The notes beneath the pieces are model-generated. The model had not been told where the DNA came from. It ran no database searches and was given only the letters and a program-made list of their open reading frames with translations. Made by a program: the position numbers and the translations under genes. From NCBI GenBank assembly GCA_964522265.1, contig CAZFVS010000009.1, forward strand, positions 5,819 to 18,975: 13,157 nucleotides of DNA. Direction: 5' to 3'. Positions 3 to 13,157 of this stretch are shown piece after piece. Position 1 is the first letter of the stretch. Each line of letters opens with the position of its first letter. Source of the stretch: an uncultured Gammaproteobacteria bacterium (GTDB lineage: Bacteria; Patescibacteriota; Microgenomatia; Daviesbacterales; UBA10151).

Positions 3-1079
3 GGATCCATTTCGCTATTTATTTTTAACCTAAGACTTGTTTCAGCCGCTCTTTTAGAAAGAAATTTGCATTTCAATAAATTAGTCATAGCCGAAATAGG
101 AGAACTTCTGATGCGTCAAGTTCTGACTATAATTCTGGCTTACTTGGGTTATGGTGTTGCTAGTTTTGTTTGGGGATTACTGGTGAGCCGATTAGGAGGG
201 TCGGTATTTTATTATATTTTATATCCCTGGAAGATGAAATTTCGCTTTTCCTTTGCTGATATAAGACCTTTCCTGCCTTTTGGAATTCCGTTTCAACTGA
301 GTACTATAGCAAACAATGTAGGCGGGATAGCAACTCCCTGGATAGTGGGTGGTGAAGGGACGAAAGCCTTAGGGCTTGTTGGTTGGGCTGGGGGTACCGG
401 TCAAACAGCGGTGTCTATTAGTGATACAGTCAGTAAGGTAATATTCCCGATTTGTGCAAGAGTCCAACATCACAAGAAGCTTGTGATAAGCAGTATCGAG
501 AAAGCGGTTCACTTTACCAGTCTTATGACTTTTCCGGTTGTAGCGATGATGTTTGTTTTGGCTGAACCGATAACTTACATAATATTTACAGCTAAATGGA
601 AAGACGGGATACCGGCTCTGTATGTCTTTACTCTTTCTTCGGTATTTATCTCATTTAGCCATTTGTCCAATTTTATTCTGCTTGGTCTTGGTAAATCACG
701 GATAGTCAGAAACATCTCAATATTAAACGGTTGTCTGCTTTGGTTGTTGGCAATTCCTCTGGTAAGGTATTTTGGTTTTATCGGTATGGCCTGGGCAAAT
801 TTACTAGTTTACCTAACATCAATAATTGCTTTTAGGGAAATAAAAAAAGTAGCTGATATTAGGATAATTACTTTTATTCTTCCGTATTTAATGTTTTCAG
901 CCGTAGCAGGAATAGCTACATTTCTGTATGTTCTTAAATTTCCAATACACAATTTTTTGGAACTTAGTCTGGCTGTGATTTTTGGATTTTTGCTGTATGC
1001 AATACTGGTTGGGATTTTTAGGCTGAAGCTAATTCTTCATGATGCCAAACAAATTTATGACCTTCTCAGGAAAGAATGA
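3..1079 (+). CDS. Polysaccharide/oligosaccharide flippase of the MOP superfamily (Wzx/PST-like), 5'-truncated by the window edge. Only the C-terminal ~359 codons are present.
   Basis: The track starts this ORF at TTG 66, but the same frame (codons from nt 3: GSISLFIFNLRLVSAALLERNLHFNKLVIAE...) has no stop back to the edge. The LLERNLHFNKLVIAEI segment resembles the conserved central (Q/E)R.L.F..L motif of PST/Wzx flippases. The rest is a run of hydrophobic helices typical of the Polysacc_synt_C half. TGA stop at 1077-1079. Confidence 0.7.
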   Translation, partial: GSISLFIFNLRLVSAALLERNLHFNKLVIAEIGELLMRQVLTIILAYLGYGVASFVWGLLVSRLGGSVFYYILYPWKMKFRFSFADIRPFLPFGIPFQLSTIANNVGGIATPWIVGGEGTKALGLVGWAGGTGQTAVSISDTVSKVIFPICARVQHHKKLVISSIEKAVHFTSLMTFPVVAMMFVLAEPITYIIFTAKWKDGIPALYVFTLSSVFISFSHLSNFILLGLGKSRIVRNISILNGCLLWLLAIPLVRYFGFIGMAWANLLVYLTSIIAFREIKKVADIRIITFILPYLMFSAVAGIATFLYVLKFPIHNFLELSLAVIFGFLLYAILVGIFRLKLILHDAKQIYDLLRKE

Positions 1080-1237: not shown

Positions 1238-2017
1238 TCAGCCTTTCTTCTTACTGTCTTTGGCCAAAGCCTGGAGTTCCCAGATTTTTACCCATTTTAA
1301 AAAATGGTAAATCAAAAAAATAGAAGTTAGCACAAAACCCCTCACTCCTGATTTATAATCTTTAAACTCTTTTTGGCGGATCCAGAAGTTATAAATCATC
1401 GAGCCGGGTATTGTTAAAATACCTGCTCTTGACCCTTTTAAATACATGATTTTAGCCTGGTCGTCTGTGTACTTGTTAAATTTATATATCAGACCAGAAA
1501 TACTGCGGTGAGAAAGATGAATTATTGGAGTTTTGAGCTGCCCGATTTTGCCATTTATGATGATTCTTTCATGCACAGCAGCTGGAGTAACCCTCCCAAC
1601 TCCCCGTTTGAAGATTCGAGGATGCCCCCCGGAAAGAGTGGGTGTTAAAGGCTTACCTAAAAAAAATTGGTGAAAATAGACATTATAAGCGCTGTAATCA
1701 CTTTTTTTAATTGCATTGATAATTTCTCTACTCAGGTTAGCAGGTATTCTTTCATCGGCATCAAGCATTATGATCCAGTTACAAGTTGCTTTATTTAAAG
1801 CATATTGTTTTTGTTTACCTAAAGTTTGGAGTTTGTGCAAAAAAACATTTTTGGTATATTTTTTTGCAATTTTTACTGTGTTATCATCACTGAAATCATC
1901 CACCAGAATGATTTCATCAACCCAGAACAAACTTTTGAGAGACCCTGCGATTACATCCTGTTCGTTTTTAGTAATGATAACAGCCGAAATTGACGGATGG
2001 TTTGATAAAGGTCTCAC
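1238..2017 (-). CDS. Family-2 glycosyltransferase, WaaE/KdtX-like (beta-glycosyltransferase of the cd02511 type).
   Basis: The N-terminus ISAVIITKNEQDVIAGSLKSLFWVDEIILVDDFSDDNT is the classic GT2 Rossmann start. It has the LDADE (DxD-type) motif. The C-terminal KFNKYTDDQAK...GVRGFVLTSIFLIYHFLKWVKIWE tail is typical of WaaE-like enzymes. The start is GTG (plus-strand CAC at 2015-2017), and the frame upstream has no other start codon before the divergent wzm-like gene. Confidence 0.85.
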   Translation of the reverse strand: MRPLSNHPSISAVIITKNEQDVIAGSLKSLFWVDEIILVDDFSDDNTVKIAKKYTKNVFLHKLQTLGKQKQYALNKATCNWIIMLDADERIPANLSREIINAIKKSDYSAYNVYFHQFFLGKPLTPTLSGGHPRIFKRGVGRVTPAAVHERIIINGKIGQLKTPIIHLSHRSISGLIYKFNKYTDDQAKIMYLKGSRAGILTIPGSMIYNFWIRQKEFKDYKSGVRGFVLTSIFLIYHFLKWVKIWELQALAKDSKKKG

Positions 2018-2060: not shown

Positions 2061-2900
2061 ATGGATAAAAATTATGACCTGGAAGAAATAATTATTGAAC
2101 CCAAACCCAAATGGATGCTTTTGAAAATTAAAGAGCTGTGGGATTTCAGAGAACTTTTTTACATTTTTGTCTGGAGAGATTTAAAGGTACGTTACAAGCA
2201 AACAATTCTGGGAGTTATGTGGGTAATTTTCCAGCCACTTATCACAGCGGCTGTTTTTTCATTATTTTTCGGAAGGTTGGCAAAAATGTCGTCCGGTAAT
2301 CTGCCGTATGAATTATTTGTATTTATAGGTTTAGTTTTTTGGATTTATTTTTCAAGTGCACTGTCCAATGCGAGCAACAGCATGGTGGAGCATGCCAATA
2401 CCATCAAAAAAATATATTTTCCCAAAGAAATTTTACCGATATCAGCTGTTATTACAAATTTTCTTGATTTTTGCATAAATTTTTTTATTTTAATAATATT
2501 ATCCTTGTACCTCGGTTATATACCTTCTAAAATTATTTTCGTTCTGCTGCCTGTTTCTGTTGTAATTATTTCTTTGGCTGCTTCGGGACTTGGATTGTTT
2601 TTGGCGTCTTTTAATGTAAAATATCGGGATGTCAGATACATTTTACCTTTTTTTATACAGCTTTTACTTTTTCTAACGCCTGTAATCTATCCGTCATCAT
2701 TTTTCAGGCCATCCCTGCAATATTTTTTCGGGTTCAACCCGCTAACCGGTGTCATAGAAAATATGCGGTTAGTTTTATCAGGCCGAAATCCAACGGATTG
2801 GAGCCTGGTTTTTATCTCAGGAACATCCGCAGTATTTTTGTTTATTGGAGGTTTGGCTTATTTCAGATCAACTGAAAGATATTTTGCCGATTTAGCATGA
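2061..2900 (+). CDS. wzm: ABC-2 type polysaccharide/teichoic-acid exporter permease (Wzm / TagG / KpsM family).
   Basis: The 279-aa protein has about 6 hydrophobic helices. The conserved N-terminal segment LWDFRELFYIFVWRDLKVRYKQTILGVMWVIFQPL is characteristic of ABC-2 glycan exporters. Its stop overlaps the ATPase start (ATGA at 2897-2900). Confidence 0.88.
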   Translation: MDKNYDLEEIIIEPKPKWMLLKIKELWDFRELFYIFVWRDLKVRYKQTILGVMWVIFQPLITAAVFSLFFGRLAKMSSGNLPYELFVFIGLVFWIYFSSALSNASNSMVEHANTIKKIYFPKEILPISAVITNFLDFCINFFILIILSLYLGYIPSKIIFVLLPVSVVIISLAASGLGLFLASFNVKYRDVRYILPFFIQLLLFLTPVIYPSSFFRPSLQYFFGFNPLTGVIENMRLVLSGRNPTDWSLVFISGTSAVFLFIGGLAYFRSTERYFADLA

Positions 2901-4177
2901 AACCTCTTATTGAGATTTTTAAATTATCAAAATGCTACAATTCAGTTTCCCAAAAAGATTCCTATGTAGCCCTAAGAGATGTTATACCTAATTTCATAAA
3001 ATCTTCGTTGCAGTTTAAAAAAATTCAAAAGAAATATTTTTTTGCTCTAAGGGGTATCAATTTAGCAGTTAATGAAGGGGATGTTATAGGCGTTATTGGT
3101 GCAAACGGCGCCGGCAAATCGACTTTTTTAAAGATTTTGGCCCGGATTACTCCTCCCACTTTCGGAAAAGCCATCTTAAGGGGAAGAGTGGCATCATTGC
3201 TTGAAGTAGGGACAGGTTTTCATCCGGAGCTGACCGGAAGAGAGAATGTATTTTTAAACGGTACTCTTTTAGGTATGACCAGAAGAGAAATTAGGCAAAA
3301 ATTTGATGATATTGTAAATTTTTCCGGAGTTGAAAAATTTCTTGATGCCCCGGTAAAGCATTATTCAACAGGCATGCAGTTGAGGTTGGCTTTTTCAGTA
3401 GCAGCGCATATTAATCCTGATATTTTGCTTGTTGATGAGATTTTGGCGGTTGGAGACGCTGACTTCCAGAAAAAAACATTGGCAAGAATACGCGATATTT
3501 CTGTCAGAGGGAAGGCGATCATTTTTGTTTCCCATAATTTATCCGCTATTACATCACTTTGCAATAAAGTTGTTCTTTTGGAATCGGGCCGTATGGTAAA
3601 AATCGGTAACCCGGCAACAGTTGTCTCAAGCTATTTGAAAAAATCCGGAGTTATAACGACAGCAAAGTTACCGGCAAACAGTTATTATGCGAACAGTTTT
3701 ATCCACATATTAAAAATCTCAGTTTGCAGCAGTGAAGGTAAGACTTTTAAGTCATTTGATATCACGAAACCCTTAAATATAGAGATTTGTTATCAGATAA
3801 TAAAGATGAATGTATGGTTTACCTGTCATGTTTTCGTTACCGATATGTCGGGAACTCTGCTGTTCCAATCCCCCGAAGATGCCAGCGGAGACCCGGCTTT
3901 TGCTCCAAAAACGACCGGTACGTATAAAAGCACTTGTATTATTCCGGGGAATTTCTTGCCGGAAGGGTTATTTTCTGTGAGGATTGTGATAGCTCCTTCT
4001 TTAATACTTATAAAAGAAGCAATTGATATTAGTAATGTTATCACTTTTCATATACATGACAGTTTAAGGGGGGATTCAGTAAGAGGAAAGTTGTCAATGA
4101 TATTATCCGGAGCTGTCAGGCCAAAATTTGCCTGGAATAGGATAAAATTAACAAAACCTGCTTCAAGTTTTAAATGA
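2897..4177 (+). CDS. wzt: ABC transporter ATP-binding protein for glycan export (Wzt / TagH family) with an additional ~165-aa C-terminal beta-rich domain (Wzt_C-like).
   Basis: Walker A GANGAGKST (nt 3098-3124), signature YSTGMQLRLAF, Walker B ILLVDEILAVGD and H-loop FVSHN are all present. Residues ~262-426 (nt ~3680-4174) extend beyond the nucleotide-binding domain. The gene is coupled by ATGA overlaps at both ends. Confidence 0.9.
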   Translation: MKPLIEIFKLSKCYNSVSQKDSYVALRDVIPNFIKSSLQFKKIQKKYFFALRGINLAVNEGDVIGVIGANGAGKSTFLKILARITPPTFGKAILRGRVASLLEVGTGFHPELTGRENVFLNGTLLGMTRREIRQKFDDIVNFSGVEKFLDAPVKHYSTGMQLRLAFSVAAHINPDILLVDEILAVGDADFQKKTLARIRDISVRGKAIIFVSHNLSAITSLCNKVVLLESGRMVKIGNPATVVSSYLKKSGVITTAKLPANSYYANSFIHILKISVCSSEGKTFKSFDITKPLNIEICYQIIKMNVWFTCHVFVTDMSGTLLFQSPEDASGDPAFAPKTTGTYKSTCIIPGNFLPEGLFSVRIVIAPSLILIKEAIDISNVITFHIHDSLRGDSVRGKLSMILSGAVRPKFAWNRIKLTKPASSFK

Positions 4178-5748
4178 CCCAAGAAAAAATTAGTGCCAAA
4201 CAAAAACTACCCGGATTATTTATTGGGATTTGTACAGTTTGCCTGATTGCAGTTTTTTTGTATAGCGGGGTTTTAAATGCTTATTTTGTAAGTGAAGATT
4301 ATGAATGGTGGACCAGGGTGCGGAATATTGATTTAATCAACTCTTTCCGGTTATTTTTACCACCAATTTTGGGTGGTATATCTTTACCACCATATTTTCG
4401 GCCCCTGGTTGGTTGGACTGTTTGGTTGGATACAGTTGTTTTTGGGATGACTCCTTTGGCATCCCATATAACCAGCTTAATATTTCATTTAATTAATATT
4501 GCCTTGGTTGGAATAATTGGTTTTTATATTTTCAGAAAATCGATCTTAGCCGGCGTACTGGGTGCACTTTTTTTTTCCGTTTTTCCCTTTCATCCTGAAG
4601 CTGTAGTTTGGAGTATAGGCGGTAGGAGTGATGTAGTAATGGCTACTTTTTATTTATCAGCTTTCCTCGGTGTCATGAAGTATGTTGAATACAATAAGAG
4701 AACTTTTGTAATTCCGATTTTAATATGCTTTCTGCTGGGATTATTATCTAAAGAAGCTGCTGCGACCTTTCCTCTTGCGGTTTTGGTTTATCTTCTTTTT
4801 TCAAATCAAGGAAGCATTCACGAAAAACTATCCGCCCAGAAAAATTTGTTAGTGATATCGGTTGTGGTATTTATAGGTTATTTTGTTTTCCGTAGTGTGG
4901 TACTGCAGACGATTAACCCCTATCAGGCGGTGAAAATGATAAGCAGTTTTACTCTGGGCAGCATATTTCAATTATATCTGATTCTATTATTGAGCAGCTT
5001 ACTCTTTAGAAGTATTCTTAACCGGATGGTGCCAAAAAATCTGGAATGGATAAAGAATAAAATATGGTATTTATGGATGCTGATAGGGATTACATTTTTG
5101 CCGACTTCCTATTTGGTTACACAAGAAAGGCAGTTGTATTTACCCTCAGCTGTTTCCGGCTTGTTTCTATCGGGGGTTATTTTCATAATTTATAGTTATA
5201 TAAAAGGCAAATCAGTTTTAATCAAAACATTTTTTATTATTTCTGTCATCTCTGGTTTGGTATATAGCGGCCAATTGCTTTACCAAAGAAATGAAGTCTG
5301 GAAAAATGCAGGAAATATTGCCCAGTCTATTGCCGGCCAGCTTGCCGATCAATTAGCGGAAGTGGGCACCGATAAAAAAGTTTATTTTGTCAATGTACCG
5401 GACAGCGTTAATGGGGCATATATTTACCGGACTCATCTTCAGCAAGCGGTAGAGTTTTTGTTAAACAGGCAAGGGCCACAGCTTATTGTTACACCGGAGC
5501 TTTATGGTACAGACTCAAAAGTTTACTACATATCCCCCAGAAATATCCGGGTCGAAAACGAACAGGGTTTTGTGATGTATTTGGCTAACAAGGATAGGTA
5601 TGGGAGGTTTGTAAAAGAAACCCCGGACTATTATGCGACCTTATTATCAAAAAAGTTATTAAATATAGAGATTAAGGATCAGGATTTCAGTAAAAAAAGA
5701 AACCTGGTTTATTTTTTAAAGAATGGGAAAATAGAATTATTGGAATAA
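4174..5748 (+). CDS. Polytopic membrane protein, GT-C-fold glycosyltransferase-like (TMTC / PMT_2 / DUF1736-type), with a ~150-aa non-TPR C-terminal soluble domain.
   Basis: An acidic first-loop motif (VSEDYEWW) follows TM1. The motifs YFRPLVGWTVWLD...HITSLIFHLINIAL...FHPEAVVWSIGGRSDV...LLSKEAAATFP match the conserved loop and helix pattern of bacterial TMTC-like GT-C proteins. ATGA overlap with the wzt-like gene. Confidence 0.62.
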   Translation: MTQEKISAKQKLPGLFIGICTVCLIAVFLYSGVLNAYFVSEDYEWWTRVRNIDLINSFRLFLPPILGGISLPPYFRPLVGWTVWLDTVVFGMTPLASHITSLIFHLINIALVGIIGFYIFRKSILAGVLGALFFSVFPFHPEAVVWSIGGRSDVVMATFYLSAFLGVMKYVEYNKRTFVIPILICFLLGLLSKEAAATFPLAVLVYLLFSNQGSIHEKLSAQKNLLVISVVVFIGYFVFRSVVLQTINPYQAVKMISSFTLGSIFQLYLILLLSSLLFRSILNRMVPKNLEWIKNKIWYLWMLIGITFLPTSYLVTQERQLYLPSAVSGLFLSGVIFIIYSYIKGKSVLIKTFFIISVISGLVYSGQLLYQRNEVWKNAGNIAQSIAGQLADQLAEVGTDKKVYFVNVPDSVNGAYIYRTHLQQAVEFLLNRQGPQLIVTPELYGTDSKVYYISPRNIRVENEQGFVMYLANKDRYGRFVKETPDYYATLLSKKLLNIEIKDQDFSKKRNLVYFLKNGKIELLE

Positions 5749-5749
5749 C

Positions 5750-7492
5750 ATGTTTTTACTGATTCTTATATTAATTTTAGGGGTGGTTGTCAGGTTATGG
5801 GGAATAAATTTCGGTTTGCCGTATATTCAACATTTAGATGAGGGGGGGGTAACATATACTGCTTTTTTTGCAGCAGCCAACCACCTTAAACCGGATATGT
5901 ATTTTCATACAACCTTCCTGCCGTACAGCTTGATATTGTTATATGGGGTATATTATTTATTCGGGTTAATATTCCATTTATGGGGGTCGACCCAACAGTT
6001 TTTTACTGCATTTTTAAAAGATCCGAGCATCTTTATTCTGATCGGTCGAATGATTACTGTTATGATTTCGGTGGCTTCTATAGTATTGATTTATTGGATT
6101 GGTAAGAAACTTTACGACTACAAGATAGGTTTAATATCTGCATTATTTTTAAGCCTAGCATTTCTTCATGTACAAGAGTCACACTATATCAAAGAAGATG
6201 TCATGATGGGGTTTTTTGGTTTGTTAATCTACTACAATTCTTATCAATTATCCCAAAAAGGTAGGTACAGAAATTATTTATTGTGCGGGCTGTTTCTGGG
6301 ATTGTCCTTTGCGCTAAAGTATAATTTTTTTGTTTTTTTGCCGGTATTTATTGTCTCCCATCTGCTGGTCGGTTTTCAATCAAAACATAAATGGTTGTAT
6401 CTAAATTTAAAATTTCTTACAGCGATTTTTATTGTAGTTACTCTTTATTTTTTTATAAATCCCTACGTATTAATTGATTGGCACAAGGCAGTTCGGCAGC
6501 TTGATTATCAAAAGGAGCTTTCGATTGTCCAGTGGGTTAGTTCTGAAGGTCAACCTGTTTGGGTTTATTACATAAGCCATCATTTACTAAACGGAATCGG
6601 TTTTCCCTTGCTAATCTTAAGTGTTTTAGGAGTTTTTTATTCTGTTTTTGGTAAGAAAAACACAAAAGATATTCTTTTAGTTACGACGCCTGTCTGTTTT
6701 TTCCTCTTGATCGGGATAGCTGGAGGCACAAATTTTTCCAGATATGTGGTGATGATTATTCCTCAGCTGATGCTTATTGCTGCTGTAATGATAAATCGAT
6801 TGGTAAATATGATCAACCAAACGCAACCTAAAAAGAATTTTCTGCTCTTTTTTGCCAGTATTCTGGCAGTTATTCCGTCAGCTATTTTAGTCATTAAATT
6901 TGATTATTACCTGAGCAGTAATGATACGCGCATATTGGCTAAAAATTGGATAGAAAAGAATATACCTGCCGGTACAAGACTGGTTAACGAGGGGGCTGCC
7001 AGATCGCAGATCTATTCGGCAATCGGACCGCCCCTTTCCATGGACCAGGAATCAATAAAGAAACTTATTGCAGAGGTATCCGGAAAGGGCTTAGATATCG
7101 GATCACTTCTTGCGCTGTCATATGCGACTCAAGATAGGGTTGGTTATAACTTAATTGGTACTCCCAGGATGGATTATAAATATAATCCTGATTCAGGTAG
7201 TTATAGTACTCTTTCGTCGGTTGATGAATATGTTAAAGGAGAGTACTGCTTTTTAGTTTTATCTAGCTGGGCTGTTAAAAACAGGCAAAAATATAACCGG
7301 GATTTTGAAACTTCAATCAATAATTCATATTATTTGTATAAAGAATTTTTGCCTTTTCCTGAGCTGAACGAAGATCTCATATGGAATGTTGATTATAATA
7401 ATCTGGTTCGTGTCAGAATATTCGACAACAGAATTACTTCTGGTCCGCGGATTAAAATCTTTAAACTTAAGGATAACAAGGGTTGCAAGTAA
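5750..7492 (+). CDS. Polytopic membrane protein, ArnT / GT39-like GT-C glycosyltransferase (lipid-carrier-dependent) with a C-terminal soluble domain.
   Basis: The N-terminal RLWGINFGLPYIQHLDEGGV motif (LP....DE in the first extracytoplasmic loop) is typical of PMT_2/ArnT-like enzymes. There are at least 10 hydrophobic helices and a soluble tail from about residue 385. The start lies 1 nt after the preceding TAA. Confidence 0.68.
   Translation: MFLLILILILGVVVRLWGINFGLPYIQHLDEGGVTYTAFFAAANHLKPDMYFHTTFLPYSLILLYGVYYLFGLIFHLWGSTQQFFTAFLKDPSIFILIGRMITVMISVASIVLIYWIGKKLYDYKIGLISALFLSLAFLHVQESHYIKEDVMMGFFGLLIYYNSYQLSQKGRYRNYLLCGLFLGLSFALKYNFFVFLPVFIVSHLLVGFQSKHKWLYLNLKFLTAIFIVVTLYFFINPYVLIDWHKAVRQLDYQKELSIVQWVSSEGQPVWVYYISHHLLNGIGFPLLILSVLGVFYSVFGKKNTKDILLVTTPVCFFLLIGIAGGTNFSRYVVMIIPQLMLIAAVMINRLVNMINQTQPKKNFLLFFASILAVIPSAILVIKFDYYLSSNDTRILAKNWIEKNIPAGTRLVNEGAARSQIYSAIGPPLSMDQESIKKLIAEVSGKGLDIGSLLALSYATQDRVGYNLIGTPRMDYKYNPDSGSYSTLSSVDEYVKGEYCFLVLSSWAVKNRQKYNRDFETSINNSYYLYKEFLPFPELNEDLIWNVDYNNLVRVRIFDNRITSGPRIKIFKLKDNKGCK
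5842..5849 (+). repeat. G8 homopolymer tract inside the GT39-like CDS (codons gaG GGG GGG Gta, encoding E31-G32-G33-V34).
   Basis: Counted directly: aggggggggt at 5841-5850. It is the longest G/C run I noticed in an otherwise AT-rich window. Confidence 0.9.
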
Positions 7493-7512
7493 AGTGTAAC
7501 CTTGTTTAGTAG

Positions 7513-7545
7513 TTGAAAGCCTTTGTTCGGTAATGCTAGTATAAT
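7513..7545 (+). promoter_or_regulatory. Candidate sigma70-like promoter in the only sizeable gap of the plus-strand cluster.
   Basis: TTGAAA (7513-7518), 18 nt spacer, TGcTAGTAT (7534-7542), overlapping a perfect TATAAT at 7540-7545. It lies 15-20 nt upstream of ATG 7561. This rests on motif matching only. Confidence 0.3.
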
Positions 7546-7560
7546 TTTAATTCTCTGCTC

Positions 7561-10479
7561 ATGAAAAGGTGGTTGCTGCTAGTTTCTAGTATTATCTTTC
7601 ATATATCAACGCATATCACTGCTGTAGCGCTTCTCATATTCTTTTTTTTGCCCATCTCAAATTGGTATATCAATCACTCGGTGATACTGGGAGTTGACTT
7701 CTATAATATGGTTTCTAACACTTCTTATTATTCCCGGCATTTTGATGCCCGTTACTTAGGTTACAAACCAATCAATTGGGCCGGATACCCATATGCATAT
7801 GATTACCCCTCCCTTCATTTTTATCTGAATGCATTGCTGGTGCCATATTTTGGTGTTCAACAATCAACTCTAATATATTCGATGTTATCTTTGTTTGCGT
7901 TCGGGCTTAGTAGTTATTTTTTATTCTGGGTGATTTCAAGAAATAAAGCGTTGTCTTTTGTTTTGGCGCTTTTCAGCCTATACTCCTCGGCGAATTGGGG
8001 TCCGATTATTTGGGGTGGTAACTTACAGTATGTAGGAACAATGGCATTTTTACCGTTTACTATTGGGTTGCTTTATTTATATACCCAAAGCAAAACAAGG
8101 AAATTTTTAATCGTTTCTGCTGCTGTTGCAGGACTTTCTGTATTGGGCCACCCGCAGATCTTAATTTCTTACATCTCAATATTTGTGTTCCTGATTATTG
8201 TCTTCGGATACTTTGAAAAAATTAAGGCGACTATCAAAAGAAGGCTTGTAGATTTGGGGATTTATTTTGGGGTAGTTCTGGTTATATCCTATGTTCAATT
8301 ACAACAATTCCTGGGATCCAACATCCTATATTTACCCGTATATATTTTAAATCAAATTAGTGCACTATTTTCAAGATTTTCCGGGTCTGTGAGTAAGCCT
8401 GATTATGGTTCTTCGGTTAGCAGTATTACCCCGATAGCAACTATCAAAGCAATCGCAGCCTACAATAAACAGGAGTTTTGGAGGTTTCTGTCTGAAGTTA
8501 ATGAAATATTTTTTGTATTTTTTGCTGCAGCGGTCGTCTTATTAATTATTAGTGTAATTTTTGCAAAAAAGAGGTTAAAGGTATTAGGCGTTCTGCCTTT
8601 TTTAATATTCTTAGGCTATACGTTCGTATCAATTTATGGACTTTCAAGGGGAATCCCTTTTTTTCAGGGTGGTTGGTATAGGGCTTTTTGGGCAATGCCT
8701 CTGGCATTTGGGGTTTGTATTGCTTATGGATACCGAATGTTTTGGTTCTCGTTAATAGAGCGGATCAGTCTGTTGGATAGTTTAGCTGCAAAAAGTATTC
8801 TGGCATTGGTATTTACAATTGTAATTTCAGTATCGGGATATTTTTACTTCAGTAGGCAGCCGTTGGAAGATTTTATTGATAAGCACATTGATACCATTAG
8901 GTTTAGACAAAAGTCAGGTGTTTATCCGGATGCGCTTAACAAACCGTTTAAAAACCATTCAGAATTTGAAAATTTAGCCCAAAATTTAGTTCCTAAATGG
9001 CTTCCTGTGCAAGATCATCAATACCGATTATATTCAGCTGACCAGAAAGTCAATATTTGGTGGCCAACTTTTTATGAGATGCCTCTTTTCAGAGGTTATA
9101 ACGATTCCCCGATTGGTTCAGGTATGGCAGGGTCATATTTTTGGACTGATATAGCACTCGCTGCCAATGCCGGAAAAGATCCCATTATTGAGGATTTCAA
9201 ATATCCAAAAGATATTGCTAAAAACAACGCGCTATATTTAATTGATTGGTTTTCGATAGGTTATTTTGAGGGGGGACACGAAAGAAGCGATTCTTACAAT
9301 CCTCCATCCAGTTTCTTACTGGAGGATAAAAATATTTTTGAAAGGGAAGAAATAGCTTCTGTTGCCGGTAGAGTTAAAGTATTTGAGACAAAAGACGGGA
9401 AAATGGAGTGGGTGAATGACGACAGTGACGCACTGAAATTTTACAAGTTCAAAGATGGTTTAGTTTCACCGGTTGCGTCAGCTACAGATGCATCAATTAT
9501 TGGTATTATCGGTTCGTGGGAGAGTTTTGAAACTTTTAACAGAAGTTTGGCGATGACTAATACCAACTCTCAGCAGCTTATTACAGTGTGGCTTACACAA
9601 TCATTGGCAGAAATACCCAGTTTGGATAATCTAAATTTAGACGCAGTGATATTATATGGATATAAAAATGGAGATAACAATTCTGGTTGGAATAAAGTAG
9701 AAAAATATCTCAAAAAAGGTGGTAAAGTTTTTGTGGAAACAGGTAGTGATGTTTTTCAGACTAAAAATACCAAGCTGCCTAAAATTTTTCCTATAGAAGG
9801 TACCAAACGAGAGGGATTGGGCATGAGTTGGGATTTAAATGAATTTGGACCTCCCAGTATTGATGGTAAGGAGTGGAACTTTTCACTGCCAACAAACTTA
9901 AAGAATAATGCTGAAGTTATACTAAAAACCGGTAATACACCCTTGATTGTTAGCGGATCTTTTGAAGGCGGTAAAGTAATTTGGAGCGGCATGAACCTTT
10001 TCTATCATGCCAATGTTTATAAATCAACTAAAGAAGGAGAGTTTATCAGGTCCATAGTTTCTCGATTGGTTTCACTGGAAAAAAACGATCCTCCACCCTC
10101 GCAAGCCCAATTTATCAGCAACCGAAAGATTAAAATTAAATCCCAAAATGCCAAAGCAGTGTTGCTTAGACAGGAATTTTGGCCTGTCTGGACTGCCAAA
10201 GTTAATGGTCAAACTCAAAAGATCTTACCGGCAGGTCCAACGGGTCCAGGATTTATGTACGTTCCGATTCCGACACAGCTTCGAGATAAACCGGTTGAGG
10301 TTGAATTCAATTATCAGGGGGATACCTCAACACTTATATATACAATATTAACGATTGTAGTATCGCTGGTTATACTAGATTATTTATTAGGTGGCAAAAT
10401 CACTAAAATGATTTATTTGAGACACCAGGGGAAAATAGTTAATCATATAGGTAGGTGGTGGAAAAAAGAAGATGAGTGA
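7561..10479 (+). CDS. Large (972 aa) YfhO-like / GT-C-superfamily-like membrane protein. N-terminal polytopic domain (~aa 1-430), ~490-aa extracytoplasmic domain, single C-terminal TM anchor.
   Basis: It has many hydrophobic helices with loop motifs WAGYPYAYDYPSLHFY and GLSVLGHPQ. The C-terminal EFWPVWTAKVNGQTQKILPAGP..GFMYVPIP...VEVEFNYQG, followed by the helix TLIYTILTIVVSLVILDYLLGG, reproduces the W.A.V.G......V....V.F.Y-plus-terminal-TM pattern of YfhO-family proteins. The family call is from memory of motif patterns, not from a search. Confidence 0.6.
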   Translation: MKRWLLLVSSIIFHISTHITAVALLIFFFLPISNWYINHSVILGVDFYNMVSNTSYYSRHFDARYLGYKPINWAGYPYAYDYPSLHFYLNALLVPYFGVQQSTLIYSMLSLFAFGLSSYFLFWVISRNKALSFVLALFSLYSSANWGPIIWGGNLQYVGTMAFLPFTIGLLYLYTQSKTRKFLIVSAAVAGLSVLGHPQILISYISIFVFLIIVFGYFEKIKATIKRRLVDLGIYFGVVLVISYVQLQQFLGSNILYLPVYILNQISALFSRFSGSVSKPDYGSSVSSITPIATIKAIAAYNKQEFWRFLSEVNEIFFVFFAAAVVLLIISVIFAKKRLKVLGVLPFLIFLGYTFVSIYGLSRGIPFFQGGWYRAFWAMPLAFGVCIAYGYRMFWFSLIERISLLDSLAAKSILALVFTIVISVSGYFYFSRQPLEDFIDKHIDTIRFRQKSGVYPDALNKPFKNHSEFENLAQNLVPKWLPVQDHQYRLYSADQKVNIWWPTFYEMPLFRGYNDSPIGSGMAGSYFWTDIALAANAGKDPIIEDFKYPKDIAKNNALYLIDWFSIGYFEGGHERSDSYNPPSSFLLEDKNIFEREEIASVAGRVKVFETKDGKMEWVNDDSDALKFYKFKDGLVSPVASATDASIIGIIGSWESFETFNRSLAMTNTNSQQLITVWLTQSLAEIPSLDNLNLDAVILYGYKNGDNNSGWNKVEKYLKKGGKVFVETGSDVFQTKNTKLPKIFPIEGTKREGLGMSWDLNEFGPPSIDGKEWNFSLPTNLKNNAEVILKTGNTPLIVSGSFEGGKVIWSGMNLFYHANVYKSTKEGEFIRSIVSRLVSLEKNDPPPSQAQFISNRKIKIKSQNAKAVLLRQEFWPVWTAKVNGQTQKILPAGPTGPGFMYVPIPTQLRDKPVEVEFNYQGDTSTLIYTILTIVVSLVILDYLLGGKITKMIYLRHQGKIVNHIGRWWKKEDE

Positions 10480-13156
10480 TGATAAAGAGTCGGTAAAACT
10501 TAATGAAGAGATAATCGAAAAAGATGTCGAAAAACTGACCGAAGATGTAGTGAAAATAATAAAAAAAGAGGAAAAGATTCATACCCGGATATTCAGATGG
10601 ATTTTATTTTTAATAAGTGCTTTAATAAATGTTGCTGCAGCGGGAATAGTTTATAAAACTCTAGAACCTATTATCGGTTGGTATCTGACAAAAAATCCGG
10701 TTAGAGGAATTGATTTATTTTTATCTGCAGCTTATGCCAACTATATTATAAAATGGCATGACTTTTTAAGGCCTTTTGCCTGGAAATATATTTGGTTTGG
10801 CGGACAACCATTCTCTTTAGATTATCCATCGCTATATTTTTTAGGGATGATTCCCTTTGTAGAAAAGTTCGGATTAATTCAGGGAGTAATGCAATTTGCT
10901 GTGTTTTTTTTGCTGATCTTTGCCATCTCTTGCTATTTTTTCTACAAGGAACTTTCTTCAAATGTCGGTTTGTCTTTGGTTTTAACTGTTGCTACTATTT
11001 TATCGGTAAATTTATATCGAGCACTAATTTGGGCCGGCGGTATTCCTTTCTGGTCTACCCAAGCCTTTTATCCGTTAGTCGGTTTTCTGCTGGTCAGGTT
11101 TTTGAATACTTACAAAAAAAAATGGTTATATTTAGCAGGTATTATTGCGGGGTTGGGAGTTATGGGGCATCCGCAAGGTTTTTTAAATGTTATTATTCCT
11201 TTAAGCATTCTGATTTTACTCTTTTACAGCGGTAAGGAGGGGTTAAAAATTGGTCAAAGGATCAAGAATTTGGTTATTTTTCTTCTAATTTGGTTTTTGG
11301 TTGGTCTTCCGGGTATATTATTAAATTTTGTCGGCACCCTATTTTCAGCACTAATATCTTATTTGGGCCAATTAGGTTCATTATTTGGTAAATCAGTTAT
11401 AAATCCATCTGTAGTAAGTAGCGGTCCGGTTGAGGGATCAACAGCTGCAGATATAATTAAATGGACTCATCAGCAATTTTATTATGTCTTTTCTGATACG
11501 CAGCAAATCATTTGGTACTTATTGGGAATATTTGCACTTTGCTGGATTGTTACCGTTGTATTCCGCAAGCACCGGATTAGAAGCATACTATGTATTTTGC
11601 CCTTTGTAATTTTCCTAAGTTATCAATTTATCTCTGTATTTTTGTTTTCAAGAGGGATAGACTTATTTATCACCGGTTGGTACAAAGCTTTCTGGCCTAT
11701 ACCGGTGGCTGCTTCCGCGTTAACTGCGGTGTTTTGGGGGCAAACAACGCAGGCGTTTAAAAGATTTAATTCCTTTAAATTATTTAAGATGACCTCTTGG
11801 TCTGTTGCAATAGCAACAAATTTAATCTTTATTTCGTTTGGGTATTTATATTTTACACCCGGATTAACAAAAGTATTAGTTGACCGGATAGATTTTTTAT
11901 CCACGATGTCCAGTCCGTATCCTGATATTTTGAATATTAAAATCAGTGATACAGAGAGAAAAGATTTGGCATCCCAACTGGTTCCTAAGTTTATAGACCC
12001 GAACGATAAAAATAAAAGGCTTTATACGGTTGACGCCACGGTCAATTTATGGTGGCCTACTATGTATGATATGCCACTAGCCAGAGGGTATGTAGATCCT
12101 GCAATTAATACCGCCCAAAGATGGGGAATTTTTTGGTTGGATTCAATTATGGGGCCGTCTGGTAAAGATTCCAAAGCCTCATTGATTGTTGACTGGAAAA
12201 CTCCGGAAAATGTGGCTTATGAAAATACTAAGTTTCTGCTTGATTGGAATTCCATATATTATTATTTAGGGAATTATTCAAGCAACTCTCCCTCGATACT
12301 GGCGGAACATGTAATAAGCAATGATTATACAGATGGGGAGGAAGAGGTCAAGACATTCGGAGTGATTAGGCGTTATGGTCCGCCTGCAGAAGAAGTGGGG
12401 AAGTTTTATCCTGATTGGACTCAATCGCTTAAATATTATCGAGTTAAGCCTGAACTGGTTTCACCGATACTGGCTCCCAATAATGCCAGCCCAATCCTGC
12501 TAATTGGAGATGCGGTTGCTTATGACACATTTTATCGCTTTATCGGTATGCATAATTTGAATAGTCAAAAAATTGTAATTGCAACGAAATCAAATTTTAT
12601 AGATGACTACAGTTTATCTGAAATAAAAAAGTTTGATAAGGTAATCCTATACCGCTATGACTATAAAGATAAATCAAAAGCCTGGGAAACACTGTCGAAA
12701 TATCTGGAAAAAGGCGGACGGGTATATATTGATACCGGACCAGAGGGGAAAGAAGCCGCAGCTAGTAATTTACCTGGGATACTGCCTGTAAAACGAACTA
12801 CCAGAAACAACATTGGACGGGATTGGAACGTTGAGGTTTCAGATAGTAATCTAACACAAGAAATAATGTTTGATAAATTCACCCCTTTAGATTTTGACGG
12901 ACAACCCTGGAATGTATCCCATCCGGATAGTGACAGTGATCTTGCAGCAGATGCAAAAATCATTTTAAAAAACAATGGCAAAATAGTAGCCGTTGAAACC
13001 GATATTGGATCCGGAAAGGTAATTTGGACAGGGTTTAATTTACCGTATCATATAATCCGGGATTATAACGAAGAAGAATCCAAGTTTTTGATTAACATCC
13101 TCTTTTCCGATCTTGATATAGCGGAAAAGAGGATCGATAATTTTAATTATCGGTTC
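10472..13156 (+). CDS. Second YfhO-like large membrane protein, a tandem paralog of 7561..10479. It is 3'-truncated by the window edge (895 codons present) and is NOT in the supplied ORF track.
   Basis: Frame 2 is open from ATG 10472 (overlapping the upstream stop: ATGAGTGA) to the last base. Translation: MSDDKESVKLNEEIIEKDVEKLTEDVVKIIKKEEKIHTRIFRWILFLISALINVAAAGIVYK...DYPSLYFL...GLGVMGHPQ...GWYKAFWPIP...LVPKFIDPNDKNKRLYTVDATVNLWWPTMYDMPLARGY...KYLEKGGRVYIDTGPE...GSGKVIWTGFNLPYH...IDNFNYRF. These motifs are collinear with the upstream gene. Confidence 0.85.
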   Translation, partial: MSDDKESVKLNEEIIEKDVEKLTEDVVKIIKKEEKIHTRIFRWILFLISALINVAAAGIVYKTLEPIIGWYLTKNPVRGIDLFLSAAYANYIIKWHDFLRPFAWKYIWFGGQPFSLDYPSLYFLGMIPFVEKFGLIQGVMQFAVFFLLIFAISCYFFYKELSSNVGLSLVLTVATILSVNLYRALIWAGGIPFWSTQAFYPLVGFLLVRFLNTYKKKWLYLAGIIAGLGVMGHPQGFLNVIIPLSILILLFYSGKEGLKIGQRIKNLVIFLLIWFLVGLPGILLNFVGTLFSALISYLGQLGSLFGKSVINPSVVSSGPVEGSTAADIIKWTHQQFYYVFSDTQQIIWYLLGIFALCWIVTVVFRKHRIRSILCILPFVIFLSYQFISVFLFSRGIDLFITGWYKAFWPIPVAASALTAVFWGQTTQAFKRFNSFKLFKMTSWSVAIATNLIFISFGYLYFTPGLTKVLVDRIDFLSTMSSPYPDILNIKISDTERKDLASQLVPKFIDPNDKNKRLYTVDATVNLWWPTMYDMPLARGYVDPAINTAQRWGIFWLDSIMGPSGKDSKASLIVDWKTPENVAYENTKFLLDWNSIYYYLGNYSSNSPSILAEHVISNDYTDGEEEVKTFGVIRRYGPPAEEVGKFYPDWTQSLKYYRVKPELVSPILAPNNASPILLIGDAVAYDTFYRFIGMHNLNSQKIVIATKSNFIDDYSLSEIKKFDKVILYRYDYKDKSKAWETLSKYLEKGGRVYIDTGPEGKEAAASNLPGILPVKRTTRNNIGRDWNVEVSDSNLTQEIMFDKFTPLDFDGQPWNVSHPDSDSDLAADAKIILKNNGKIVAVETDIGSGKVIWTGFNLPYHIIRDYNEEESKFLINILFSDLDIAEKRIDNFNYRF

Positions 13157-13157
13157 A

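Follow-up and report, generated by a model that had tools for sequence, protein, structure and literature searches.

Two very large, adjacent membrane-protein genes occupy the downstream part of a 13,157-nucleotide (nt) stretch of contig CAZFVS010000009.1 (assembly GCA_964522265.1, positions 5,819 to 18,975 of the forward strand), which derives from an uncultured bacterium of the Microgenomatia and is referred to here, at its full length, as the window. These genes, A upstream and B downstream, raise the question of why a genome would keep two related enzymes side by side: an earlier inspection of the DNA by itself (the sequence-only reading) proposed either two distinct specificities or a heteromeric pair. 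The answer favored here, to which we assign a probability of roughly 0.6, is that A and B constitute an active pair of glycosyltransferases of the C fold (GT-C), produced by coupled translation, that would add sugars to a single exported surface glycan outside the cytoplasm, in two different and probably successive transfers.

Ancestry and conservation of the gene pair

A and B are ancient tandem duplicates that have diverged deeply. BLASTP aligns the two proteins collinearly from A3/B42 through A833/B877, with 263 identities over 860 positions (31%), 52% positives and an E value of 4e-118, and their Smith-Waterman score of 1049 compares with 50 +/- 8 (maximum 72) for 30 shuffles of B. The sequence-only reading had described them as tandem, collinear and deeply diverged paralogs with little DNA identity, a description that stands in full: nucleotide identity reaches 47% over aligned codons, and no direct DNA repeat longer than 29 nt was found between the two genes. 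All eight coordinate ranges that it gave for shared motifs translate exactly into the quoted peptides, and the four motifs that it quoted without positions map to 9703-9750, 9967-10008, 12698-12745 and 13007-13051. A similarity arising from hydrophobic composition only is ruled out, since the soluble C-terminal domain is more alike (33.6% identity, A 446-835) than the membrane domain (26.8%, A 1-445), and the pairwise alignment accordingly extends well beyond hydrophobic segments.

A recent duplication is likewise excluded, by the 47% nucleotide identity and by the separate clades that the two proteins form. In a neighbor-joining tree with 100 bootstraps, the upstream, A-type clade is supported at 95 and includes a Chisholmbacteria member, while the downstream, B-type clade is supported at 76-98, so that the duplication must be older than the split of these lineages. 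Among the related loci collected (L001-L021; a scan of GTDB species gave 11 loci), the A-upstream/B-downstream order recurs in L001-L016 and L019, with both genes directly adjacent in L001-L003 and L005-L012, and in every A/B-type locus examined a B-type gene comes after an A-type one. The pair-bearing lineages are Candidatus (Ca.) Daviesbacteria, Ca. Curtissbacteria (including L011 and L012, which are L006- and L001-type loci) and Ca. Chisholmbacteria (L019), all of them Microgenomates, with 'Patescibacteria group' as the remaining informative title, and all genomes in which tandem A/B pairing was observed here are of Microgenomates type. The nearest relative, L007/L010, has an A ortholog with 80% and a B ortholog with 79% identity, and the closest relatives are annotated as hypothetical proteins and come from Ca. 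Daviesbacteria and Ca. Curtissbacteria. The survey of related genomes thus finds the pair kept, in fixed order, in several Microgenomates lineages, and together with the separate clades it confirms the proposal that the duplication is old. Relative to the L007 orthologs, the ratio of nonsynonymous to synonymous substitution (dN/dS) is about 0.10 for both genes (0.113/1.17 for A, 0.120/1.14 for B), which indicates that both are retained by purifying selection.

The two reading frames overlap, as had been claimed, by 8 nt (ATGAGTGA), the ATG of B (10472-10474) lying just ahead of the TGA of A (10477-10479). This junction is kept in L001, L003 (at its in-frame ATG), L006 and L007, while L005 has an 11-nt overlap instead. 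In the window, the start of B lies inside the stretch that encodes the conserved acidic tail of A (10465-10479, GAAGATGAGTGA), and tail and start codon may therefore each limit changes in the other. Spacing varies elsewhere: some pairs are separated by 46-136 nt, with 46 nt between A and B in L019. In L004, a 475-residue open reading frame (ORF; 12906-14333) with no Pfam hit lies between A and B, and its start overlaps the end of A by the same 8 nt.

Strict adjacency and coupling are what would be expected of an obligate heterodimer comparable to EmbA-EmbB or Pmt1-Pmt2, that is, one machine such as a processive polymerase or a branching enzyme in which neither subunit would function by itself. 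The gene order is fixed and adjacency strict in nearly all loci, the 8-nt overlap is conserved across A/B-type loci and would favor equimolar synthesis, the evolutionary rates of A and B are nearly identical, and a precedent exists in EmbA and EmbB, which have been described as working as a heterodimer (PMC2885622). Nevertheless, adjacency and coupling are equally usual for enzymes that act sequentially, the L004 insertion and the wider spacings speak against such a unit, and single-copy members of the family occur in L017, L020 and the outgroup L021 (protein P0133), which implies that the fold needs no paralogous partner. We therefore regard an obligate heterodimer as a possible, though tentative, alternative to two separate transfers.

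Other arrangements were observed in the wider family. Tandem pairs are also present in L013-L016; those of L013, L015 and L016 (at about 6000-11900) represent, together with a sequence in L017, a second type, whose clades C and D have bootstrap values of 100 each, and the L014 pair groups separately from the other pairs. C/D-type pairs occur in other Microgenomates, including a Daviesbacteria genome, and the deep nodes that would place the C/D duplication relative to that of A/B are supported at only 26-49%. In some A-type proteins of about 1300 residues (P0029, P0031, P0033 and P0043), the C-terminal ectodomain (profile positions 607-978) is present as two tandem copies, P0029 being encoded at 3241-7182 of L019 in a Chisholmbacteria genome. 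In P0097, a protein of 2159 residues from a Chloroflexota metagenome-assembled genome, the tail of one family copy (profile positions 859-946) is followed by a complete second copy, and this protein may have arisen by fusion of a tandem pair or may reflect an error in gene calling.

Family assignment and predicted fold

The proteins had been labeled YfhO-like, and this part of the sequence-only reading does not hold. YfhO (PF09586) is matched neither by A or B at E<=10 nor by any of 24 aligned relatives at E<=1, and membership in that family is rejected. Instead, 20 of the 24 relatives match PF10131 (PTPS_related) at E<=1, with a best E value of 9.5e-13. With the gathering score of this family set at 26.4 bits, B lies above the cut-off (33.8 bits, residues 705-782 aligned to profile positions 476-555) and A just under it (25.7 bits, residues 82-221 aligned to positions 4-144). 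When 1.84 billion representative proteins were searched exhaustively with a profile, 998 clusters, defined at 50% identity, were returned at E<=1e-3, of which 547 reached E<=1e-30, and the A1 profile retrieves the full-length PF10131 proteins P0161 (profile positions 34-621, 77 bits) and P0172 (positions 1-530, 90 bits) with E values of about 1e-82 to 1e-77. Many relatives carry no precomputed Pfam hit, NCBIfam has no model for A or B, and the cluster labels of ten distant relatives read 'hypothetical protein' only. PF10131 belongs to the GT-C clan CL0111 of Pfam and is listed as 'function unknown' (PMC7801869). A and B share with it the overall architecture of a membrane domain followed by a C-terminal alpha/beta domain, and they are a very divergent Microgenomates branch of this family.

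Structure prediction agrees with the clan. AlphaFold2 models were obtained for A (mean pLDDT 79.9, pTM 0.72) and for P0008, the full-length B ortholog encoded in L007 of Ca. Daviesbacteria (1017 residues, 79% identity to B; pLDDT 80.3, pTM 0.74). Both models begin with a membrane domain made of helices, continue with a beta-rich domain of about 490 residues, and finish with another hydrophobic helix and, at the terminus, an amphipathic one; P0008 has in addition a long N-terminal helix at the B-type extension. Searched with Foldseek against the Protein Data Bank (PDB), both retrieve STT3, PglB, AglB, ALG12, AftD and DPY19 with a probability of 1.00 and E values of 1.9e-7 to 1e-4. GT-C enzymes are thus the top matches for the models of A and of the B ortholog, in line with the GT-C-like core that had been anticipated.

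When the modeled helices are taken as transmembrane (TM) segments and the N-terminus is set inside, A is predicted to have 11 core helices, which would place its large C-terminal domain outside the cell. The distribution of charges supports this orientation: the short predicted cytoplasmic loops of A contain 2, 1, 2, 5 and 4 lysine or arginine residues and the short outer loops 0, 0 and 2, and the tail that follows helix 922-942 contains 7. On this predicted topology, the motifs pointed out by the sequence-only reading lie in extracytoplasmic loops or within the extracytoplasmic domain (DYPS, GHPQ, GWY[RK]AFW, WWPT..RGY and KGG/WSG).

Residues 620-920 of the A model reach a pLDDT of 85-95. In both models, Foldseek aligns the C-terminal part with glycoside hydrolases of families GH42 and GH164 and with STM3548 and STM1381 (target-based TM-score, TMt, of 0.53), two small alpha/beta proteins, and weak Pfam matches to DUF4159 and GATase1_like agree with this result. 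The region matched in GH42 is the non-catalytic GATase1-like oligomerization domain plus a beta-sandwich; such an ectodomain would suit the obligate heterodimer considered above.

The cytoplasmic end of the proteins is also distinctive. The motif WW-x-[KR]-[DE][DE][DE] is found at the extreme end of A (10456-10476) and of P0008-P0024, and the shorter WW-x-[KR]-[DE] is C-terminal in 55 of 106 full-length family representatives. This tail is possibly a docking or sorting signal.

Conserved residues and divergence between A and B

An alignment of the A and B clades contains 61 invariant columns common to both, including G75, P77, Y82, GHPQ, W372 and the RGY.D block. G196, H197, P198 and Q199 are identical in 24/24 sequences, and W372 is followed, at position 374, by K or R throughout. 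In GT-C enzymes, one extracellular loop usually bears a DxD motif or a modified version of it (PMC8035078), and two acidic residues lie in predicted loop 1 of both clades: D46 (7696-7698), in a G-[VI]-D context just after TM1, is acidic wherever the position is present, and so is D81 of DYPS (7801-7803), which is E in one sequence. In the WWPT block, which reads NIWWPT or NLWWPT and has the variants GWPT, SWNT and WWGG, W501 is the sole invariant residue. Because D46, D81, H197 and K/R374 are kept in both paralogs, A and B both look catalytically competent, and, judged from these residues, both are probably active.

The possibility that one paralog serves as a catalytically dead scaffold or acceptor-binding partner of the other must be weighed here. 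Loss of activity is a frequent fate of duplicated enzymes, A scores below B against PF10131, and A is invariant where B varies at 19 sites, with 12 showing the reverse pattern. This idea is nonetheless highly improbable in view of the 61 invariant columns common to the two clades, of D46 and D81, acidic in both, and of the equally low dN/dS of the two genes.

Superimposed on this common set are systematic differences. At 32 sites, A is invariant and B conserved with a different residue, and the densest cluster, 7/32, falls at A 146-161 in outer loop 2, where A has W-G-P-x-x-W-G-G-N-L-Q-Y and B has Y-R-x-L-x-W-A-G-G-I-P-F-W. Relative to A, B also carries about 13 additional residues, inserted within the C-terminal domain. 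The combination of shared candidate catalytic residues and outer-loop divergence is compatible with two specificities and with a heteromeric pair alike.

Genomic neighborhood

The features of the window are collected in Table 1.

Table 1. Position and basis of the features recognized in the window.
Feature	Position	Strand	Basis
Wzx-type (Polysacc_synt_3) flippase-like gene, 3' part	3..1079	+	Pfam profile positions 109-291 of 293; cut by window start
Glycosyltransferase family 2 (GT2) gene	1238..2017	-	PF00535
Wzm-like permease	2061..2900	+	Pfam, NCBIfam
Wzt/TagH-like ATPase	2897..4177	+	Pfam, NCBIfam
PMT_2 GT-C protein	4174..5748	+	Pfam
PMT_2 GT-C protein	5750..7492	+	Pfam
Gene A, upstream paralog, PF10131-type GT-C membrane protein	7561..10479	+	ORF, 972 residues
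A, N-terminal membrane domain, 11 predicted TM helices, N-terminus inside	7561..8853	+	AlphaFold2 helices, charge bias
A, first extracytoplasmic loop, residues 37-98, candidate catalytic loop	7669..7854	+	Predicted topology, conserved acidic residues
A, outer loop 2, WGGNLQY	8011..8031	+	B counterpart WAGGIPFW at 11030-11053
A, GHPQ, outer end of TM5/TM6	8146..8157	+	B counterpart at 11165-11176
A, outer loop GGWYRAFW	8668..8691	+	B counterpart TGWYKAFW at 11672-11695
A, predicted extracytoplasmic C-terminal domain, residues 432-921	8854..10323	+	Model secondary structure, Foldseek
A, best-conserved block WWPT..MPL.RGY.D	9052-9105	+	Within C-terminal domain
A, alpha/beta GATase1-like part	about 9478-10068	+	Within C-terminal domain
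A, beta-sandwich	about 10093-10320	+	Within C-terminal domain
A, predicted 12th TM helix, anchor of C-terminal domain	10324..10386	+	Helix 922-942, mean hydropathy 1.86
A, basic predicted cytoplasmic tail, ending WWKKEDE (10456-10476)	10387..10476	+	Conserved, A and B clades
Stop/start overlap A/B, 8 nt	10472..10479	+	Likely translational coupling
Gene B, downstream paralog	10472..13157	+	895 codons without stop, cut by window end; full length about 1017 residues
B, charged predicted cytoplasmic N-terminal extension, about 40 residues, absent from A	10472..10591	+	Alignment starts at B42

The genes between 2061 and 7492 form a tightly packed row on the same strand as A and B, with 4-nt overlaps, one 1-nt gap and 68 nt before A. 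The best NCBIfam matches of the two exporter genes are galactan and teichoic-acid export subunits, and the locus is a fairly ordinary surface-glycan operon. Four GT-C-type proteins are encoded in a row, namely the two PMT_2 proteins, A and B; the PMT_2 genes were considered as a comparable paralog pair and rejected, as their products lack BLASTP similarity (E 0.2). The Wzt/TagH-like ATPase extends about 180 residues past its nucleotide-binding domain (the match ends near residue 247 of 426), an extension that recalls the C-terminal domains with which some Wzt proteins bind glycan ends. The Wzx-like frame is open from base 3. Between it and the convergent GT2 gene (1080-1237) are GC-rich hairpins with the common core CTTTTTAAAG (ccccagctttttaaagctgggg and gcaccgctttttaaagcggtg), which are likely bidirectional terminators; scans for promoters and terminators yielded background level only.

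Related loci have a similar content. S-adenosylmethionine-dependent methyltransferase genes flank the A/B pair in almost every one of them. The GT2 of the window is 39-45% identical, over its full length, to GT2 genes of L001, L003, L004 and L006, and a GT2 homolog lies directly upstream of A in Curtissbacteria-type loci. In L007, a GT2 of 232 residues (6282-6980, minus strand) adjoins A divergently, at the place where the window has the PMT_2 genes; it lacks a membrane anchor and matches dolichol-phosphate-mannose synthase (DPMS; PDB 5mlz, E 2e-22), ArnC, GtrB, AglJ and PgfS. These enzymes make polyprenyl-phosphate sugars, which are the donors of GT-C enzymes.

The presence of an exporter also calls attention to a different kind of reaction, in which A and B would act as an oligosaccharyltransferase or polymer ligase and transfer en bloc a polyprenyl-diphosphate-linked glycan, exported by the Wzm/Wzt proteins, onto a protein or cell-wall acceptor. 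The product of such an exporter needs a final attachment, STT3, AglB and PglB are the best structural matches of both models, and the conserved WWPT...RGY.D block follows the last core TM helix, a position comparable to that of WWDYG in STT3. Several observations nevertheless make this reaction quite unlikely. WWDYG is absent, W501 being alone invariant in the WWPT block; Pfam STT3 is not matched at E<=10, and neither are PDB sequences by the family profile at the same threshold; the synthase adjoining the pair in L007 is of the DPMS-like, monophosphate-sugar type; and STT3-like proteins are usual top structural hits for GT-C enzymes that transfer monosaccharides as well (PMC8035078).

Proposed function and relation to known systems

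Taken as an active pair with divided labor, A and B would work on the outer side of the membrane, each transferring a sugar from a presumably polyprenyl-phosphate-linked donor to a cell-surface glycopolymer, assembled and exported through the products of the neighboring Wzm/Wzt transporter, Wzx-like flippase, GT2 and PMT_2 genes. The extracytoplasmic domain of about 490 residues may hold the acceptor glycan, and translational coupling would yield A and B in equal amounts. Two different transfers, probably successive, are suggested because both proteins keep the full set of conserved residues and yet differ systematically in an outer loop and in the C-terminal domain.

Several points weigh against this proposal. 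The TMt values to solved GT-C enzymes are moderate (0.42-0.52), the model of A is poor precisely at loop 1 (residues 64-81) and at 450-520, and A falls narrowly short of the PF10131 cut-off that B exceeds. No functional study of PF10131/PTPS_related was found in the literature searched, so that glycosyltransferase activity is read from fold and clan. In addition, the best PDB match of the window GT2 is GmaR, and not GtrB, DPMS or ArnC, and the search for a GtrA-type flippase within the window returned only the Wzx-type fragment; with a GT2 that is not of the polyprenyl-phosphate-sugar synthase type and no GtrA-type flippase, the donor pathway is incomplete within the window.

Comparison with characterized enzymes places the proposal in context. 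YfhO uses a C55-P-sugar to act on a polymer of the cell wall, outside the membrane (PMC8035078), which is the same kind of mechanism as that proposed for A and B, and this component of the CsbB/GtcA/YfhO teichoic-acid glycosylation system is likewise a large membrane enzyme of GT-C fold with an extracellular C-terminal part. Apart from the missing profile match, A and B differ from it in that no CsbB-type GT2 or GtrA-type flippase lies within the window, beyond whose ends such partners could still be encoded, and the description of YfhO includes neither tandem paralogs nor a 12th TM helix nor the WWxKEDE tail, all of which are features of A and B.

The closest parallel for the pairing is offered by EmbA and EmbB of the mycobacterial embCAB locus, tandem GT-C paralogs of about 1000-1100 residues for which joint action on one cell-wall polymer has been proposed (PMC2885622, PMC7341804). 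Like these, and like Pmt1/Pmt2, A and B are tandem GT-C paralogs conserved as a pair, and they share with the Emb proteins large extracytoplasmic C-terminal domains; the likeness to Emb is one of analogy only, as there is no sequence relationship beyond the fold and both phylum and envelope type differ. The C-terminal domains of the Emb proteins are carbohydrate-binding modules, in contrast to the GATase1-like domain and beta-sandwich of A and B. As regards the oligosaccharyltransferases of family GT66 (STT3, PglB and AglB), they are the best structural matches (E 2e-7 to 1e-5), with TMt values of 0.41-0.48 for STT3 and PglB and lower ones, 0.29-0.36, for AglB, and, like A and B, they have an N-in core of many TM helices, after which comes an extracytoplasmic C-terminal domain. 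A and B differ from them in the fold of that domain as well as in the WWDYG motif and the profile matches discussed above.

Implications

Bacteria of the candidate phyla radiation (CPR/Patescibacteria) live as uncultivated episymbionts, and their attachment to the host probably depends on the cell surface; a literature search for CPR envelope glycosylation retrieved nothing specific. What the tandem pairing, the 12th TM helix and the WWxKEDE tail add to PF10131 is descriptive and stops short of a new kind of system, and A/B adds one case of paired GT-C paralogs beside EmbA/EmbB and Pmt1/Pmt2.

A more far-reaching view would see in A and B an obligate, Microgenomates-specific heterodimeric machine, whose two active sites and paired GATase1-like ectodomains would polymerize or branch the main surface glycan of these ultra-small bacteria and whose WWxKEDE tail would dock it to the cytoplasmic or ABC-export machinery. 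We consider this version doubtful; if true, PF10131 as a whole would receive its first functional assignment. At the strength of the evidence described for the favored pair of successive enzymes, the locus points to a conserved, strongly selected extracytoplasmic glycosyltransferase pair in Microgenomates, and D46, D81, GHPQ, the WWPT..RGY.D block and the WWxKEDE tail offer handles for a first biochemical study of PF10131.

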